Shown here one piece after another: positions 22,537 to 39,306 of a stretch of DNA of 64,000 nucleotides. Origin of the DNA: Gammaproteobacteria bacterium (lineage in GTDB: Bacteria > Pseudomonadota > Gammaproteobacteria > QZLD01); NCBI GenBank assembly GCA_033852155.1, contig JAWSVA010000006.1, positions 16,843 to 80,842 on the forward strand. Direction: 5' to 3'. Numbering within the stretch: the stretch's first letter is position 1; each line of letters opens with the position of its first letter. The notes beneath the pieces are model-generated. The model was not told where the DNA came from. It saw only the letters and a list, made by a program, of their open reading frames with translations, and searched no databases. The translations under genes and the position numbers were made by a program.

Positions 22537-23958
22537 ATGCTAAATCTTATGGAGTGTACCCCGATTGCACAGTTTGCGATTGGTTTAGATCATAAGATCG
22601 TTTCTCTTAACCGCGCATGTGAGTTGTTGACTGGTTTCTCTGCAAAAGAGGTGGTTGATACTGATATGCAGTGGCGCTTGTTCTATGATAACCCACGTCC
22701 GGTTTTGGCTGACCTTATTCTCGAGCAGGATTTTATCGGTTTTCAGAAACTGTATGAAGGAAAGGATCCTGGTAAATCTCCAATCGTCCCCTTTGCTTGG
22801 GAGGCTACCGATTATTTTGAAGATATGGGTGGAAAGCCGCGCTATATCTATTTTTTAGCCGCACCTATCTTTGATAATAATAATATTATGACGGGCGCAG
22901 TAACTACTTTGCAGGACGTTACCGAGCAAAAGCTGCGTGAAGCATCTATGCAGCGCGAATCTAAACTGTTACAGCAAGAGAATACTAAGCTTAAGTCTTC
23001 AATCCAAGAGCGTTACCGTTTTAGTAATATCATCGGTAAGAGTTCTGCTATGCAGAATGTCTACGATATGATTGTCAAAGCATCTGCTAACCTTTCCGAG
23101 TCCGCTAGTGTGGTTATCTATGGTGAGTCAGGAACAGGTAAAGAGCTTGTTGCTAAAGCGGTGCATGATATGAGTTCTCGTCATGATAAGCCGTTTGTGG
23201 CGGTAAACTGCGGGGCAATCCCAGAGAATTTACTTGAGAGTGCATTTTTTGGTCATGCTAAAGGCGCTTTTACTGGTGCGTATCAAGCCAAGGCTGGCTT
23301 TTTAGATCAGGCTGATGGCGGCACATTGTTTCTGGATGAGATTGGTGAACTTGATATTAATCTGCAGGTAAAACTGCTGCGTGCTATTGAGGCTAAAGAG
23401 TACTCTCCTGTTGGGCAGGCTACGGTTAAAAAATCAGATTTTTGTATTGTCGCAGCTACAAATCGAGATTTGCTTGATGAAGTAAACAAAGGTGATTTCC
23501 GAGAAGACTTTTATTATCGAATCCATGTGATTCCTATTAATATTCCGCCGCTGCGAGATAGGAAGGAAGATATTCCTCTTTTGGTAGATCATTTTCTAAA
23601 AGGTGTGGGTCTTGATATGGGGGAGTCTCCTTTGCCGGGCAAGGTGATGGATGCTCTGTATAACTATCATTGGCCGGGAAATGTGCGGGAATTGCAAAAT
23701 AGCGTTAGTCGTTATGTAACTCTCAATACTCTTGAGTTTAGAGACCAGGTGGTTGTGGAATCAAGTGATGATGGTTCTAACAGCGGGGTAGCTATTGCGG
23801 ATGATGTTGGGTATGTCGACGCTATGGATAGCTTTGAACGCTCATATATTCTAAAAATGTTAAATGATGGGCGCTGGAATAGGCGGGCAGTTGCTGACGA
23901 GATAGGGATTTCGCGACGTACACTGTTTCGTAGGATGCAAAAACTTGGGATAGAATAG
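22537..23958 (+). CDS. Sigma54-dependent enhancer-binding protein (PAS-AAA+-Fis HTH)
   Basis: N-terminal PAS ([14 protein letters not shown]), GESGTGKE, intact [23 protein letters not shown]-terminal [14 protein letters not shown]. Confidence 0.96.
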
Positions 23959-23964
23959 TCTCTA

Positions 23965-24055
23965 TGTGGGACAGATTTGTCCCGCAATGTAAAATCTCTT
24001 TATTATTAGTAATCTACAGTATTAGCTCGCCATGATGTGAGACATAAGTGTCCCA
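23965..24055. promoter_or_regulatory. Two palindromic upstream activator-like sites: GGGACA-GATT-TGTCCC (23968-23983) and GAGACA-TAAG-TGTCCC (24039-24054)
   Basis: Both share TGTG(G/A)GACA-N4-TGTCCC; centres are 71 bp apart, about 125 and 195 bp upstream of the predicted sigma54 start. Confidence 0.7.
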
Positions 24056-24143
24056 TCTGCATATTGGCGCGCTTTTATCGTTAGAAAAGTTTAATGATGA
24101 ATTTCATCAGATATTTCAGCAGTATATGGCTTCTTATCTATTG

Positions 24144-24160
24144 TTGGCACGCATATTGAC
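24144..24160 (+). promoter_or_regulatory. Sigma54 -24/-12 promoter (TTGGCAC-GCATA-TTGAC)
   Basis: Perfect -24 element with N5 spacing; -12 reads TTGA instead of TTGC; lies next to the activator gene and its candidate sites. Confidence 0.7.
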
Positions 24161-24236
24161 TAGTTATTCGCTGAATGTTTTTTAAAATATTCGGGCTAGA
24201 CATCGCAACATCGTTGTGTAGGAGCGATAAGGGTCT

Positions 24237-24491
24237 GTGAAGAAAATGATAGACGAATGCATGGTTGAGTTACTTGCTGAGTTGGATGCAAAAACAGTTC
24301 AAGTAAGTGAAACAGAGATAATTGAAGAGTGTGCAAGAAGAATCGGAGAAGAAAAATTACTTAATTTGAGCAAGGAGGAGCTCAGGCGCGAGATTCTGGT
24401 AGCCCTGGAGGCATCACCTCTATTCAGGAAAACCTATCTCAGGCCGGAGCGAGATGATCAAAATCTAAGTAAGTGTTATCTGGTCGTATAG
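24237..24491 (+). CDS. Small hypothetical protein, first gene of the predicted sigma54 operon
   Basis: 84 aa; AGGAG upstream of the GTG start; ends 37 nt before satP. Confidence 0.65.
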   Translation: MKKMIDECMVELLAELDAKTVQVSETEIIEECARRIGEEKLLNLSKEELRREILVALEASPLFRKTYLRPERDDQNLSKCYLVV

Positions 24492-24528: not shown

Positions 24529-25086
24529 ATGAACGAAAAAAATTACGCCAACCCTGGGCCGTTAGGTTTGATGGGGTTTGGTATGACAACAGTTTTGTTA
24601 AATATCCATAATGCTGGATTTTTCCCTATTAGTGCAATGATATTAGCAATGGGTATATTCTACGGTGGTATAGCGCAGATCATTGCAGGTGTGCTTGAAT
24701 TTAAAAAAGGTAATACCTTCGGTGTTACAGCATTTATCTCTTATGGTTTCTTTTGGATAACGCTTGTTGCTTTGATGTTGATGCCAAAACTTGGTTGGAC
24801 TGAGGCAACTCCTCATGGGTTCATGGCTTGGTTCCTATTTATGTGGGGTGTATTTACTCTATTTATGTTTGTTGGAACACTCAAGGCGAATAAGACATTA
24901 AGATTTATATTTGGCTCATTGGCGGTATTGTTCTTCTTGCTGGCGATAAGAGATTGGACGGGTTCTGAATTGATTGGGCGCATAGCTGGGTGGGAAGGTA
25001 TTGCATGTGGTTTAAGTGCTATCTACCTTGCAATGGCTGAGGTTATTAATGAGCAGTTTGATTCGGCTCTACTGCCTGTTGGCTAG
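24529..25086 (+). CDS. satP: Acetate/succinate channel SatP (GPR1/FUN34/YaaH family), copy 1
   Basis: ANPGPLGLMGFGMTT signature, YGG..Q, SYGFFW; SD AGGAG. Confidence 0.95.
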   Translation: MNEKNYANPGPLGLMGFGMTTVLLNIHNAGFFPISAMILAMGIFYGGIAQIIAGVLEFKKGNTFGVTAFISYGFFWITLVALMLMPKLGWTEATPHGFMAWFLFMWGVFTLFMFVGTLKANKTLRFIFGSLAVLFFLLAIRDWTGSELIGRIAGWEGIACGLSAIYLAMAEVINEQFDSALLPVG

Positions 25087-25135
25087 GTTGTAAGATATTT
25101 GTTTAAGTCGCTCTAATGATAGGGCGGTAGCTGTA

Positions 25136-25210
25136 AAGAGTACTAGACCCCTGTCGAAGTTCATTACGCTCATGCTAGACCTCCCTGTAATGCACTTCGA
25201 TAGGCCTATT
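25136..25210 (+). ncRNA. Structured non-coding repeat unit 1
   Basis: AAGAGTACTAGACCCCTGTCGAAGTTCATTAC-[GCTCATGCTAGACCTCCCT]-GTAATGCACTTCGATAGGCCTATT; long stem with a 19-nt loop. Confidence 0.75.
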
Positions 25211-25317
25211 AAATTTCAAAATGTAAAATTATTAGCACCTGATGATGGCTGATGCTACTTAGGTGATTAATGATGCGTGTAATACTTGATTAAGTGCAAA
25301 ATAGGAATTAAAGATAA

Positions 25318-25875
25318 ATGAGCGAAAACAATTACGCTAACCCAGGTCCATTAGGTTTAATGGGTTTTGGAATGACAACAGTTCTGCTAAATATACACAA
25401 TGCCGGATTCTTTCCAATTAGTGCGATGATTCTCGCAATGGGAATCTTTTACGGTGGATTGGCGCAGATAGTTGCTGGAGTGCTTGAGTTTAAAAAAGGC
25501 AATACCTTTGCGATGACAGCGTTTATTTCTTATGGTTTCTTTTGGATAACATTGGTTGCATTGATTCTTATGCCTAAAATGGGTTGGATTGAGGCAACTC
25601 CAAATGGCTTCATGGGGTGGTTTCTGACTCTATGGGGAATGTTTACCCTGTTTATGTTTATTGGAACATTTAAAGCAAATAAAGCATTGCGCTTGGTTTT
25701 CTTTTTGGCGACAGTATTGTTCTTCTTGTTAGCGGCAAAAGATTTTACTGGGTTAGAAATTCTTGGTCGAATTGCAGGCTGGGAGGGTATTTTATGTGGT
25801 CTTTCGGCATTCTACTTGGCAATGGCTGAAGTGATTAATGAGCAGTTTGATGCCGCTCTTCTGCCTGTAGGTTAA
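25318..25875 (+). CDS. satP: Acetate/succinate channel SatP, copy 2
   Basis: Same signatures and same 185-aa length as copy 1; close paralog. Confidence 0.95.
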   Translation: MSENNYANPGPLGLMGFGMTTVLLNIHNAGFFPISAMILAMGIFYGGLAQIVAGVLEFKKGNTFAMTAFISYGFFWITLVALILMPKMGWIEATPNGFMGWFLTLWGMFTLFMFIGTFKANKALRLVFFLATVLFFLLAAKDFTGLEILGRIAGWEGILCGLSAFYLAMAEVINEQFDAALLPVG

Positions 25876-25932
25876 TTGAATAGAAAAAGTTTAAAAGGCG
25901 CTATTTTAGTTTAAATTAATTGGCGCTGAGTT

Positions 25933-26007
25933 AAGAGTACTAGACCCCTGCTGAAGTTCATTGCAATTATGCTAGACCTCCTCGTAATGCTCTTCGGTAG
26001 GCCTACT
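25933..26007 (+). ncRNA. Structured non-coding repeat unit 2
   Basis: CCTGCTGAAG/CTTCGGTAGG stem with compensatory changes relative to unit 1; 19-nt loop AATTATGCTAGACCTCCTC. Confidence 0.75.
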
Positions 26008-26091
26008 CCAAAAAAGTTTGATCTGAATTAATTACTTTGGTCGCTTAGTTCAAGTATCGGTCATAACTAAGTGACCAAGGTAGTTAATATA

Positions 26092-26166
26092 AAGAGTACT
26101 AGACCCCTGTCGAAGTTCATTGCGCCCATGCTAAACCTCCTAGTGATGAGCTTCGATAGGCCTACT
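26092..26166 (+). ncRNA. Structured non-coding repeat unit 3
   Basis: Continuous 18-bp stem when G-U pairs are allowed; 19-nt loop GCCCATGCTAAACCTCCTA. Confidence 0.75.
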
Positions 26167-26259
26167 TTGAATAATTAAGAATGGATATCAAGAATAGAAT
26201 TAATGACCCTAGTCGCAGGCATTTGATGTATCAGGCCTAGCGATTAGAGTGATTAATAT

Positions 26260-26335
26260 AAGAGTACTAGGCCCCCTGCCAATTTACACTGCGCCTATAG
26301 CTAGACCTCCTGTGATGCAAATTGGCAGATCTCTC
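26260..26335 (+). ncRNA. Structured non-coding repeat unit 4 (most diverged)
   Basis: Stem rewritten to CTGCCAATTT/AAATTGGCAG and still perfectly paired; 19-nt loop GCCTATAGCTAGACCTCCT. Confidence 0.72.
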
Positions 26336-26536
26336 TAGGTTTGCACCTAAAGCTTTAGCTAGGTTAGATGCTAATCGCATCACAAAACATCCGGAAAACA
26401 CCTATCCTTTTGTAGGATATATCCCCCTTAAAAATCTTGTTTTAAATTTCACTTGTTAAATCATCTTGTTGCAGGCTGTGTAAATAAGCACCTTTCCTGT
26501 TAGGATTGCGTTTTGGTACATTTATGATGAAATTTT

Positions 26537-27097
26537 ATGCTGTATAGATATGAAGTATTGAATATTGCCGCCGGCGATATATTTGTGGTTTGTAGTGCTG
26601 AAAAGTTGATTTTTACTTGTTTTGTTTATGTTGATGACGCTGGAGGAAAATCAGATACCTACTGTGGAGCTACTGGTCGTATCAAAGAGGGATTGGAGGA
26701 GTTTGGTCGATTTGCCAAACGCAAAATATTGGGTGAAATAAAAATGGAACCTGATTACCTGTTTGTGAGAAATGTGTTTGATAGGGCTTTTGTCCTTAGT
26801 GAAACAGGTGAGCAAATGCAGTGCTTTGAATTGATTGGAACAGAATTTCAAAAAAAGGTTTGGAGGGCGCTATGTGATATTCCCGTTGGAGCGACAACAA
26901 CCTATAAGAAAGTTGCAGTAAGCATTGGAATGATATCGGCAGTAAGAGCGGTTGCTAATGCCATAGGTGCTAATAATATTGCACCATTGATACCTTGTCA
27001 TCGAGTTGTTCGCTCTGGTGGCGGTCTAGGTGGTTATCGTTGGGGGGGAGAGGTAAAGAAAGCATTGTTGGAAAGTGAGGTGAAATTGCAGGAATAA
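26537..27097 (+). CDS. ogt: Methylated-DNA--protein-cysteine methyltransferase
   Basis: GTEFQKKVW, RAVANA, active-site PCHRV, LGGYRWG. Confidence 0.9.
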   Translation: MLYRYEVLNIAAGDIFVVCSAEKLIFTCFVYVDDAGGKSDTYCGATGRIKEGLEEFGRFAKRKILGEIKMEPDYLFVRNVFDRAFVLSETGEQMQCFELIGTEFQKKVWRALCDIPVGATTTYKKVAVSIGMISAVRAVANAIGANNIAPLIPCHRVVRSGGGLGGYRWGGEVKKALLESEVKLQE

Positions 27098-28024: not shown

Positions 28025-28290
28025 GGTGAGCAGCTTCAAAGTATTGAGCTGTTTGGGCTCGTTTTCAAAAAAGGTTGGGGTGGAGCTATGTGCTATTCCA
28101 GCTGGAGCGACAACAACTTATAAGAAAATTGCATCAAGCATTGAAATGATATCGGCAGTAAGAGCTGTTGCTAAGCCAAAGATGCTAATAATGTTGCGCT
28201 ACTGATATATTGTCATTGTGTGGTTCGCTCTGATGGTGGTCTAGGTGGTTATCGCTAGGAAGTAGGGGGCAAGAAAACATTGTTGAAATA
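28025..28290 (+). pseudogene. ogt: Degraded duplicate of the 3' half of ogt
   Basis: Aligns by eye to about 26807-27075 (TGGAGCGACAACAAC, ATGATATCGGCAGTAAGAGC, GGTCTAGGTGGTTATCG); has a 1-nt deletion, PCHR changed to YCHC and TGG changed to TAG. Confidence 0.85.
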
Positions 28291-31605: not shown

Positions 31606-31682
31606 CGGGGTGTAGCGCAGCCTGGTAGCGCAACTGCTTTGGGAGCAGTGGGTCGGGGGTTCGAATCCCTCCTCCCCGACCA
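31606..31682 (+). tRNA. tRNA-Pro(TGG)
   Basis: Cloverleaf, anticodon loop TTTGGGA, GGTTCGAATCC, encoded CCA. Confidence 0.97.
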
Positions 31683-31710
31683 AAAGCTGTCTCAGCAGCT
31701 TTCGAGACTT

Positions 31711-31787
31711 GCGCTCGTAGCTCAACTGGATAGAGCAACGGCCTTCTAAGCCGTAGGTTGCAGGTTCGAGTCCTGCCGAGCGCACCA
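31711..31787 (+). tRNA. tRNA-Arg(TCT)
   Basis: Anticodon loop CTTCTAA, T-arm, CCA. Confidence 0.97.
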
Positions 31788-31818
31788 TATCTCGGAAAGA
31801 GATAACTTGCAGAATTAT

Positions 31819-31895
31819 GGTGGGCGTAGCTCAGTTGGTAGAGCTCCGGATTGTGATTCCGGCGGTCGTGGGTTCAATCCCCATCGTCCACCCCA
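31819..31895 (+). tRNA. tRNA-His(GTG)
   Basis: G-1/C73, anticodon loop TTGTGAT, CCA. Confidence 0.97.
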
Positions 31896-32021
31896 GATTT
31901 TGTGTAAAATTTTATATCATGTAAAATTTAACATAAGAAAGGTAGAACACAAGGCAGAAAGCTGTCTGACCTGGATTAAGTTCCAAAAGTGTAAAAGAAA
32001 TAATAGATGAAAGAAAAACGT

Positions 32022-32106
<85 letters not shown>

Positions 32107-39146: not shown

Positions 39147-39222
39147 GGGTGCTTAGCTCAGCTGGGAGAGCGTCGCCCTTACAAGGCGGATGTCGGGGGT
39201 TCGATCCCCTCAGCACCCACCA
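39147..39222 (+). tRNA. tRNA-Val(TAC)
   Basis: Anticodon loop CTTACAA, CCA. Confidence 0.97.
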
Positions 39223-39229
39223 AGAAAAC

Positions 39230-39306
39230 GGAGCGGTAGTTCAGTTGGTTAGAATACCGGCCTGTCACGCCGGGGGTCGCGGGTTCGAGTCCCGTCCGCT
39301 CCGCCA
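39230..39306 (+). tRNA. tRNA-Asp(GTC)
   Basis: Anticodon loop CTGTCAC, CCA. Confidence 0.97.

Follow-up and report, generated by a model that had tools for sequence, protein, structure and literature searches.

A four-unit array of structured RNA elements exposing a C-rich motif in a putative sigma-54 acetate-uptake operon of an uncultured gammaproteobacterial genus

Introduction

The closest described design to the element studied here is that of NrsZ, an RNA of Pseudomonas aeruginosa which, in the portions of its report that we draw on, comprises three conserved stem-loops and two spacer stem-loops, depends on RpoN and NtrC and is encoded beside ntrC (PMC4253122). The same portions describe its processing into modules, an identical loop motif that pairs with rhlA's 5' untranslated region (5'UTR), and a number of modules that ranges from one to six by species (PMC4253122). 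In this study, we have analysed an array of four structured units in a 64,000-nucleotide (nt) stretch of DNA, hereafter the window, from an uncultured member of the Gammaproteobacteria (assembly GCA_033852155.1, contig JAWSVA010000006.1, positions 16,843 to 80,842 of the forward strand). The units lie between and behind the genes of an operon that encodes a small protein and SatP/YaaH acetate uptake transporters and is headed by a sigma-54-type promoter, and they had been noticed in an initial annotation made from the sequence alone. Our investigations demonstrate that the units are real, conserved, structured + strand elements with covarying stems that have no match in Rfam or in the other collections searched and are restricted to a single uncultured genus. 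We tentatively read them as base-pairing modules carried by the operon's messenger RNA (mRNA).

As far as those portions of the NrsZ report go, the likeness is one of architecture. The three modules and two spacers there are matched by the three terminal units here and the two spacer hairpins between them, each module of both systems exposes a conserved motif in its loop, the gene of the cognate activator is adjacent in both, the sigma-54 dependence of NrsZ has its counterpart in the sigma-54 promoter heading the operon, and module number varies (1-6 in NrsZ, 3-6 units per genome here). Measured against the same portions, the differences concern sequence, size and setting. The NrsZ loop motif is ACAGGCAG whereas ours is CUA(G/A)ACCUCC, with no sequence relationship; our modules are ~78 nt long, as against ~40-60 nt, and have in addition a single-stranded tail of 16 nt, which is invariant and bears the motif a second time; NrsZ has its own RpoN promoter directly upstream, in the intergenic region past ntrC, whereas here the sole sigma-54-type site, at 24145, precedes the operon's first gene and the units are embedded between or behind protein-coding genes; the host belongs to an uncultured gammaproteobacterial order and not to Pseudomonas; and processing and target have been shown for NrsZ but are proposed here. 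The array is an NrsZ-like design within the mRNA of a sigma-54 operon, not a member of the NrsZ family. Rfam gives no family for the units, and whether it holds an NrsZ model was not checked.

Regulatory RNA elements of protein-coding transcripts offer a second comparison: in the extracts of their reports used here, the 3'UTR of icaR in Staphylococcus aureus has an anti-Shine-Dalgarno motif (PMC3868564) and GlnZ derives from the 3'UTR of glnA (PMC9731577). Within the reach of these extracts, both resemble our locus in placing a regulatory element behind a coding region on the same transcript, and both are single elements, whereas we describe an array. The C-rich motif of icaR reportedly pairs with the Shine-Dalgarno sequence of its own mRNA 5'UTR, and the source mRNA of GlnZ is said to be NtrC-induced. 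Judged from sequence, our units would fit this class of mRNA-embedded or 3'UTR regulatory RNAs by their sense position, their lack of a promoter of their own and a conservation beyond the neutral level (95% against 45-52%).

Hairpin modules with C-rich loops able to pair with ribosome-binding sites are known from LhrC1-5, the csRNAs, RsaE and sX13. Several similar hairpins, each exposing C-rich sequence, are common to these RNAs and to our array; they are, however, separate genes with a promoter and a terminator, whereas our units have neither and match nothing in Rfam. The REP and BIME elements also invite comparison, being imperfect hairpins found just past stop codons, possible stabilisers of mRNA and substrates of recombination, but they occur in tens to hundreds of dispersed copies in both orientations, whereas we find four copies at one locus in one orientation.

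Results

Four structured units at one locus

The initial annotation had reported a four-copy array of structured RNA, and the four units are indeed present, all on the + strand (positions here and below are those of the window).

Unit 1: 25135..25212, + strand; covariance model 99.7 bits; fold -23.8 kcal/mol, z -4.0
Unit 2, opening the terminal three-unit array: 25932..26009, + strand; 94.1 bits; -22.7 kcal/mol, z -2.5
Unit 3: 26091..26168, + strand; 97.9 bits; -27.7 kcal/mol, z -5.4
Unit 4, the divergent third unit of the array: 26259..26337, + strand; 81.3 bits; -18.8 kcal/mol, z -0.8

They are 78-79 nt long and 77-89% alike, and the terminal units stand 81-90 nt apart. The shared start that had been described holds as well: the start motif AGAGTACTAGRCCCC has four exact matches, all on the + strand (at 25137, 25934, 26093 and 26261), and occurs nowhere else in the window even at up to three mismatches (the mean over 100 shuffles was 1.04 matches, with a single shuffle reaching four). 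The loop motif GCTARACCTCC likewise has four matches in the window, one per unit, a number that 2 of 100 shuffles reached at up to one mismatch. When the whole genome of the window (G000; 3.1 Mb, 26 contigs, 99.7% complete) was searched by pattern, BLAST and covariance model, these four units were its only copies; the pattern search returned one extra match, with two mismatches and on a different contig, which is within the control rate.

Each unit folds with a lower stem of 11 base pairs (bp) and an upper stem of 6 bp, parted by a 1-nt mismatch or pair and capped by a loop of 19 nt. Unit 4 is unexceptional by energy alone, because its + strand z is only -0.8, and it is the source of most of the compensatory changes seen inside the window. 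A loop of exactly 19 nt had been taken as fixed; this is true of all four window units, but across the genus it applies to 8 of 13 aligned units, with a range of 17-20. A basal helix, GAGUA/UACUC, had also been described, and minimum-energy folding gives it for units 2 and 3 only; its 5' side is invariant and so offers no covariation.

Covarying stems, the folded strand and the spacer hairpins

The GTDB order of G000 contains five species-level genomes in two genera. Three belong, with G000, to the same genus (G001, G002 and G003, metagenome-assembled Gammaproteobacteria, hereafter the congeners), and G004, which is 85% complete, is the sole genome of the second genus of the family. We built two covariance models, R1 from the four window units and R2 from thirteen units. 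The thirteen-unit alignment draws on four genomes; for reasons of large insertions or low score, it omits the weakest unit of G002 and the composite third unit of both G001 and G003.

In this alignment, 96.4% of 220 stem cells are paired, as against 88.1% in shuffles, and 10 of 17 stem pairs are changed on both sides, as against 4.1; neither value was reached in any of 500 shuffles, and sliding the partner by 1-3 columns as a control brought the paired cells down to 29-46%. The stems quoted in the initial annotation read as it had given them, and the compensations are evident in the raw sequences too. By type, the cells comprise 184 Watson-Crick, 28 G.U, 2 C.A, 5 U.U and 1 U.C. Read on the - strand, the 28 G.U cells would be A.C mismatches, so it is the + strand that folds, which agrees with the G-U bias from which selection on a + strand RNA had been proposed.

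The spacers between the units, and the gaps before the first two, are also structured.

Spacer hairpin A, between units 2 and 3: 26027..26088, + strand; stem of 24 bp, UCGGUCAU conserved in its loop
Spacer hairpin B, a paralogue of hairpin A: 26199..26257, + strand; from folds, and aligned to hairpin A and its G002 counterpart
Small GC hairpin before unit 1: 25108..25127, + strand; from the fold of the gap between the first satP and unit 1
Small hairpin before unit 2: 25897..25927, + strand; from the fold of the gap between the second satP and unit 2

Hairpin A is found in all four genomes, with 20 consensus pairs of which 4 show double changes, and with 17 G.U and no A.C. A paralogue of the hairpin B type stands before unit 4 and before its counterpart in G002, and the arrangement of three terminal units with two spacer hairpins is seen in G000 and G002. 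The 5' arm of the small hairpin before unit 1, GTCGC, is common to hairpins A and B. When the 545-nt array (25876-26420) was folded whole it gave a z of -6.4, with the units and both spacers present in the minimum-energy and centroid structures. Rfam matches of hairpin A to microRNA precursors (29.5 bits against a gathering score of 58.6) were set aside as chance matches of a long hairpin.

Conservation and display of the unpaired motifs

The C-rich motif CUA(G/A)ACC(U/C)CC occurs twice per unit, once in the loop and once in the invariant 16-nt 5' tail. The consensus of the loop in the thirteen-unit alignment is AUGCUA(G/A)ACCUCC, and all 13 aligned units have retained the CUAG of the 5' motif. 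Across the two clades of the genus, identity is 95% for the 5' tail motif AGAGUACUAGACCCC, 72% for the loop core, 68-71% for the stem arms and 45-52% for third codon positions of satP. The unpaired parts are thus the most conserved, and therefore those on which selection is strongest.

Partition-function folds of the four arrays gave the CUA(G/A)ACC of the loop a probability of being unpaired of 0.88-0.97, except in unit 4 (0.63), and gave the 5' tail motif 0.55-0.75, except for an internal copy in the composite third unit of G001 (0.28); the background is 0.36-0.42. The initial annotation had suggested that each unit displays the motif twice, and both the loop and the 5' copies are unpaired above this background. 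Within the tail motif, ACC is nearly always free and UAG pairs in part with the 3' CUA. G001 and G003 have, within the hairpin of their composite third unit, a third copy of the tail motif, and in that unit of G003 both tail-type copies have shifted together from CUAG to CCAG.

Distribution of the units

By covariance models, the unit count is four in G000, three in G001, six in G002 (one decayed, one weak) and three in G003. In the congeners, the units are always on one contig, at the syntenic locus and in the sense of the neighbouring genes, and three units close the array in every genome of the genus (4/4). The covariance-model search that the initial annotation had recommended thus recovers units in three congeners and none elsewhere in G000, and the many dispersed copies in either orientation that it had named as counter-evidence were not seen, since there is one locus and one orientation. 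In G004, the syntenic locus is present and the covariance models found no unit there, this genome being 85% complete.

Across 185,579 species genomes (one each), the motif-pair pattern matched only the three congeners. The same pattern was unmatched in metagenome contigs, a slightly shorter version was unmatched in viral contigs, and blastn of the array found no match in plasmids and phages. No unit was present at the 80 metagenome loci whose SatP homologues are closest (61-80% identity), the lone match being of 13.3 bits with an E of 0.73. Rfam 15 matched none of the units, at E<=10 in the window and at E<=1 in the congeners, where the loci gave transfer RNAs (tRNAs) only; the initial annotation, which could name no family for the units, is supported in this respect.

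Two of the relatives show further variation at this locus. In G002 (locus L042, reverse strand, ~8300-4000 in locus coordinates), the whole operon is duplicated, with promoter region, small gene, satP and units, and the upstream copy has a decayed unit (42 bits, tail and loop motifs altered) together with a degenerated vestige of spacer hairpin A, as though the redundant array had come under relaxed selection. In G004 (locus L045, reverse strand), satP is followed by a GC-rich hairpin and the C-rich run AACCTCCTCCCTCC in a gap of 134 nt before a convergent gene; this run may be a simpler anti-Shine-Dalgarno-like 3' element, or chance.

The operon that carries the array

The array belongs to the following arrangement of genes and sites.

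Sigma-54-dependent activator gene: 22537..23958, + strand; 473 amino acids, PAS - AAA+ - HTH_8; Pfam Sigma54_activat 6.4e-65, PAS_9, HTH_8
Likely upstream activator site 1: 23968..23983, no strand assigned; inverted repeat GGGACA-N4-TGTCCC, read from sequence
Likely upstream activator site 2: 24039..24054, no strand assigned; inverted repeat GAGACA-N4-TGTCCC, read from sequence
Sigma-54-type promoter: 24145..24158, + strand; TGGCACG-N4-TTG, matched exactly nowhere else in the 64-kb window
First gene of the operon: 24237..24491, + strand; 84-amino-acid acidic protein, GTG start, no known family
SatP/YaaH acetate uptake transporter, copy 1: 24529..25086, + strand; Pfam Gpr1_Fun34_YaaH 5e-38, NCBIfam AceTr_1 285 bits (cut-off 50)
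SatP/YaaH acetate uptake transporter, copy 2: 25318..25875, + strand; protein 83% identical to copy 1
Ogt/MGMT methyltransferase gene, downstream bound of the array: 26537..27097, + strand; Pfam DNA_binding_1 6.8e-31, NCBIfam ogt

The activator gene lies directly upstream of the operon, and its product is 82-89% identical in the three congeners and 67% in G004. Equivalent inverted repeats occur in the intergenic regions of the congeners, the promoter motif TTGGCACG-N4-(T/G)TG is conserved in 5 of 5 operon copies from four genomes of the genus, and rpoN is present in G000. The 84-amino-acid protein is 76-95% identical in the congeners and 40% in the other genus; it is probably helical, has no Pfam or NCBIfam match, and its best Atlas match (0.88), to unnamed clusters, serves as a lead only.

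The number of satP copies across the four genomes is 1, 1, 2 and 3, and each copy has a unit behind it at 16-62 nt from the stop codon; in two congeners the first unit begins 16 and 25 nt past the satP stop. G002 has one extra unit between the small gene and satP. No + strand promoter-like site falls on or before the units, and no sigma-54 or sigma-70 promoter is conserved ahead of single units. Four terminator-like sites lie between 23900 and 27400, none of them on a unit. The initial annotation had inferred multi-copy small RNAs, but that the units are independent small RNA genes was not borne out: they are interspersed with and follow genes of a sigma-54 operon, and a + strand promoter-like site before them is missing.

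Unit-bearing sequence in RNA libraries

Assembled contigs from two metatranscriptome runs (X7 and X8) and two DNA runs, all of one study, cover parts of the stretch in a relative that is ~91% identical. Record 7 of X7 (RNA) is a contig that runs from 24219 through the first satP and unit 1 into the second satP, as does record 14 of X8, and record 15 of X8 (RNA) is a 171-nt contig that spans 26049-26164, which is the second half of hairpin A and unit 3. This shows only that unit-bearing sequence occurs in RNA libraries and that unit 1 is bridged there. The intervals 23900-24202, most of 25662-26048 and 26165-26700 have no cover by RNA-library contigs and were not used as evidence.

The DNA contigs of other strains (X5 and X6) have alternative joins, from 25875 to 26104 and from 26164 back to 25312. 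The number of units and satP copies therefore varies within the genus, and inter-unit recombination therefore reshuffles the locus. The strains concerned have one unit fewer, or a hairpin plus unit before the second satP.

Discussion

Based on these observations, we tentatively favour, with somewhat less than even confidence, a reading of the units as an intercistronic and 3'UTR array of base-pairing RNA modules. We read them as modules of the operon transcript because the sense strand is the one that folds, promoters and terminators of their own are absent, the unpaired motifs are under strong selection and the spacer hairpins are long and perfect. According to this reading, the adjacent PAS-type activator would switch on the sigma-54 operon (small protein, one or more SatP, array), and the array would be placed on the + strand transcript by read-through from the sigma-54 promoter. 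Each module forms a 17-18-bp hairpin that shows CUA(G/A)ACC(U/C)CC single-stranded twice, and the two long spacer hairpins may serve as cut sites for a double-strand RNase that frees the modules, as in NrsZ. Freed or still tethered, the modules could then pair their exposed motif with G-rich, Shine-Dalgarno-like sequences of mRNAs, and the outcome would be a coupling of the translation of those mRNAs to the induction of the acetate-uptake operon. The loops of units 1 and 3, taken in reverse complement, read as a model ribosome-binding site plus start codon. In its fullest form, in which a hitherto undescribed, genus-specific modular riboregulator within a sigma-54 acetate-uptake mRNA is cut at its spacers and, upon induction of the operon, represses, or feeds back on, the translation of a set of mRNAs by a design convergent with NrsZ but not free-standing, the proposal is possible but less likely than not.

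A number of points weigh against the base-pairing reading. The processing of the array into modules is something that we infer entirely. Neither the 3151 crude start regions of G000 nor scans of its genome yielded a conserved target, and because of this the function stays inferred. The best match overall, at -30 kcal/mol, is to a NuoG-like gene and is not conserved. For the 5' motif, the first ribosome-binding site of the operon itself ranks 131 of 3151, a moderate match only, which differs from icaR, whose partner, as far as the extracts of its report go, is its own 5'UTR. The start region of the activator gene (GGGAGGUC) ranks 7 of 3151 for the loop of unit 1, but GGGAGGUC is not kept in G001 and G003; such a pairing would form a feedback loop of the Qrr-LuxO kind. 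Complementarity alone carries little weight in any case, because an anti-Shine-Dalgarno loop pairs to some extent with any good ribosome-binding site, and a protein partner explains the strict conservation of the 5' motif equally well. The covariation alignment was fitted by a model and its sequences are related, so that its counts are inflated and their independence overstated. Finally, the RNA contigs come from one study and resolve neither strand nor ends nor abundance, with DNA carry-over possible.

Other candidate partners did not survive inspection. A 15-nt complementary site on contig C18, from an ungapped wobble-aware scan of the genome, is antisense to its gene; a perfect 13-mer in folP (~0.09 expected by chance) falls within the conserved GGLAL codon run; a second CTA(G/A)ACC cluster, on contig C1, is in coding sequence, with ~0.5 such clusters expected by chance; and the start region GGAGGGTCTAGAATG of C15:4689-5783, partly complementary to the unit motifs, was treated as chance. 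The last belongs to a 364-amino-acid gene of G000 whose N-terminus resembles an IS91-type zinc-binding transposase, by a reading of the sequence made with no family search.

The main rival is a protein-binding platform or sponge, which we consider rather unlikely, in which a protein would read the single-stranded CUAGACC at two sites per module, or 6-12 per transcript, and be titrated or be recruited to the satP mRNA. Protein sites are often kept as strictly as the 5' motif (95% between clades, CUAG in 13/13), every unit places the motif in two structural contexts, in two congeners the composite third unit carries it three times, and an RNA target was not found, all of which would suit a protein; yet the operon and its neighbourhood hold no gene for an RNA-binding protein, the 84-amino-acid protein is acidic as read from its translation, which is unexpected of an RNA binder, and the GGA loop signature of CsrA/RsmA is seen in 0 of 13 + strand loops. 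With GGA present only on the - strand, which the G.U count disfavours, a sponge of the CsrB/RsmZ type was rejected. Unlikely, too, is a role confined to the mRNA in cis, where the units would be exonuclease barriers that set the half-lives of the satP messages, the spacers would be RNase III sites and the C-rich runs would load Rho before ogt. Every satP has a unit 16-62 nt behind it, no intrinsic terminator stands between satP and ogt, the unit hairpins are stable (-19 to -28 kcal/mol), and Rho binds C-rich, G-poor unpaired RNA. A barrier needs its stem, however, and neither a conserved loop nor a conserved 16-nt tail; the stems of the units change, with compensation, and their unpaired motifs are kept at 72-95% identity; three consecutive units in 4 of 4 genomes exceed what a barrier needs, and one unit of G002 lies between the small gene and satP and not behind satP.

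The remaining explanations move the function to the DNA, to the other strand or to a catalytic or ligand-binding RNA. That the units act as DNA, as single-stranded hairpins or protein sites for recombination or as repeats driving unequal crossing-over of satP, is improbable: satP copies do vary (1, 1, 2, 3), each with a unit behind, DNA contigs of other strains join the units differently, and folded DNA also tolerates G.T pairs, but the neighbourhood of core genes has no recombinase, integrase or transposase, the genome has no copy elsewhere and the phage, plasmid and viral collections have none, the end motifs of attC type are absent, and recombination follows from any repeat and leaves the conserved unpaired motifs unexplained. 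We regard as highly improbable a function of the - strand, whether as a tiny hydrophobic peptide resembling a type I toxin that would start in the loop complement or as an RNA with GGA loops. Reverse-complemented, the loop of units 1 and 3 reads GGAGGUCUAGCAUG, a perfect ribosome-binding site (Shine-Dalgarno sequence) followed by 6 nt and AUG; peptides starting with MNFDRGLVLF can be read in several units, two promoter-like sites overlap units 3 and 4, and unit 4 folds better on that strand (-28.1 against -18.8 kcal/mol). Against this, 28 G.U cells of the + strand would become A.C mismatches, with only two cells the opposite way, and hairpin A has 17 G.U and no A.C; 3 of 16 units lack an ATG frame and the remainder yield 2-41 residues, in frames and with ends that differ, none of the three codon positions of the 5' motif varies, and the promoter-like sites number 12 where 11.4 are expected, with none at units 1 and 2. 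The - strand peptide was rejected in view of a frame not conserved among the 16 units. Scarcely probable at all is a tandem series of small self-cleaving ribozymes or ligand-binding RNAs, to which the invariant unpaired nucleotides flanking covarying stems and the tandem placement within a transcript might point; each unit is a single hairpin with no supported pseudoknot, its tail and loop motifs are alike and not complementary, the sole pairing in common (CUAG with CUAG) disappears in loops that read CUAA, and no ribozyme or riboswitch model matched.

Several known classes of repeat were rejected as well. The initial annotation had argued that the array is neither CRISPR nor terminator, and we agree: the units are 78-79 nt long against ~23-50 nt for CRISPR repeats, spacer A is structured and conserved in four species and no cas gene is nearby, and none of the four terminator-like sites falls on a unit, the tails of the units reading CCUAUUAA, CCUACUCC, CCUACUUU and UCUCUCUA, which disposes of an intrinsic terminator, a GC-rich hairpin with a U tract immediately after it. 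A REP- or MITE-type repeat does not agree with four copies in 3.1 Mb at one locus, on the + strand only, and with the same pattern in three congeners. The ends of integron attC sites read RYYYAAC ... GTTRRRY; our units begin AGAGTACTAG... and end ...GGCCTA, with no GTT core at the ends, and no integrase is found among the annotated neighbours (a genome-wide search for one was not made). ToxI-like repeats are ~36 nt long, head-to-tail and directly upstream of an endoribonuclease toxin gene, and a type III antitoxin was rejected for units of 78 nt that stand 81-90 nt apart with an Ogt-family methyltransferase gene downstream. Elsewhere in G000, contig C1 has a Cas1 gene at 109744-110547 (57 bits), unrelated to the units, and its region ~97.9-110.5 kb holds a short CRISPR-repeat-like sequence with a CUGCC/GGCAG stem, ~12 kb from the Cas1 gene.

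If the base-pairing reading is right, the array would be a second, unrelated instance of modules separated by spacer hairpins, again tied to sigma-54, which would suggest that the design is a recurrent solution and not a curiosity of Pseudomonas. It would also be a case of a transporter mRNA with a regulator in several copies between its genes and in its 3'UTR, and the dose of the regulator would scale with gene copy number, because the number of units varies along with that of satP among species and strains. The bacteria that carry the array are uncultured ones from surfaces of plastic (polyhydroxybutyrate, PHB), a PHB depolymerase gene lies 1.3 kb away, and the units may bear on how these hosts tune the uptake of short-chain acids. 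The reach of such a finding would be one genus with four species-level genomes, for a function read from sequence.

The neighbourhood of the locus consists of core genes (cysS, folD, the PHB depolymerase gene and tig-clpP-clpX-lon), and no mobile-element genes were found in it. About 1.1 kb downstream of the intact ogt lies a pseudogene, a degenerate second copy of its 3' part (28156-28285), which is 82% identical to 26956-27080 and has a gap and an in-frame stop. Further along the window, two tRNA clusters, at 31606-32103 (four genes) and 39147-39303 (two), flank the tig-clpP-clpX-lon block.

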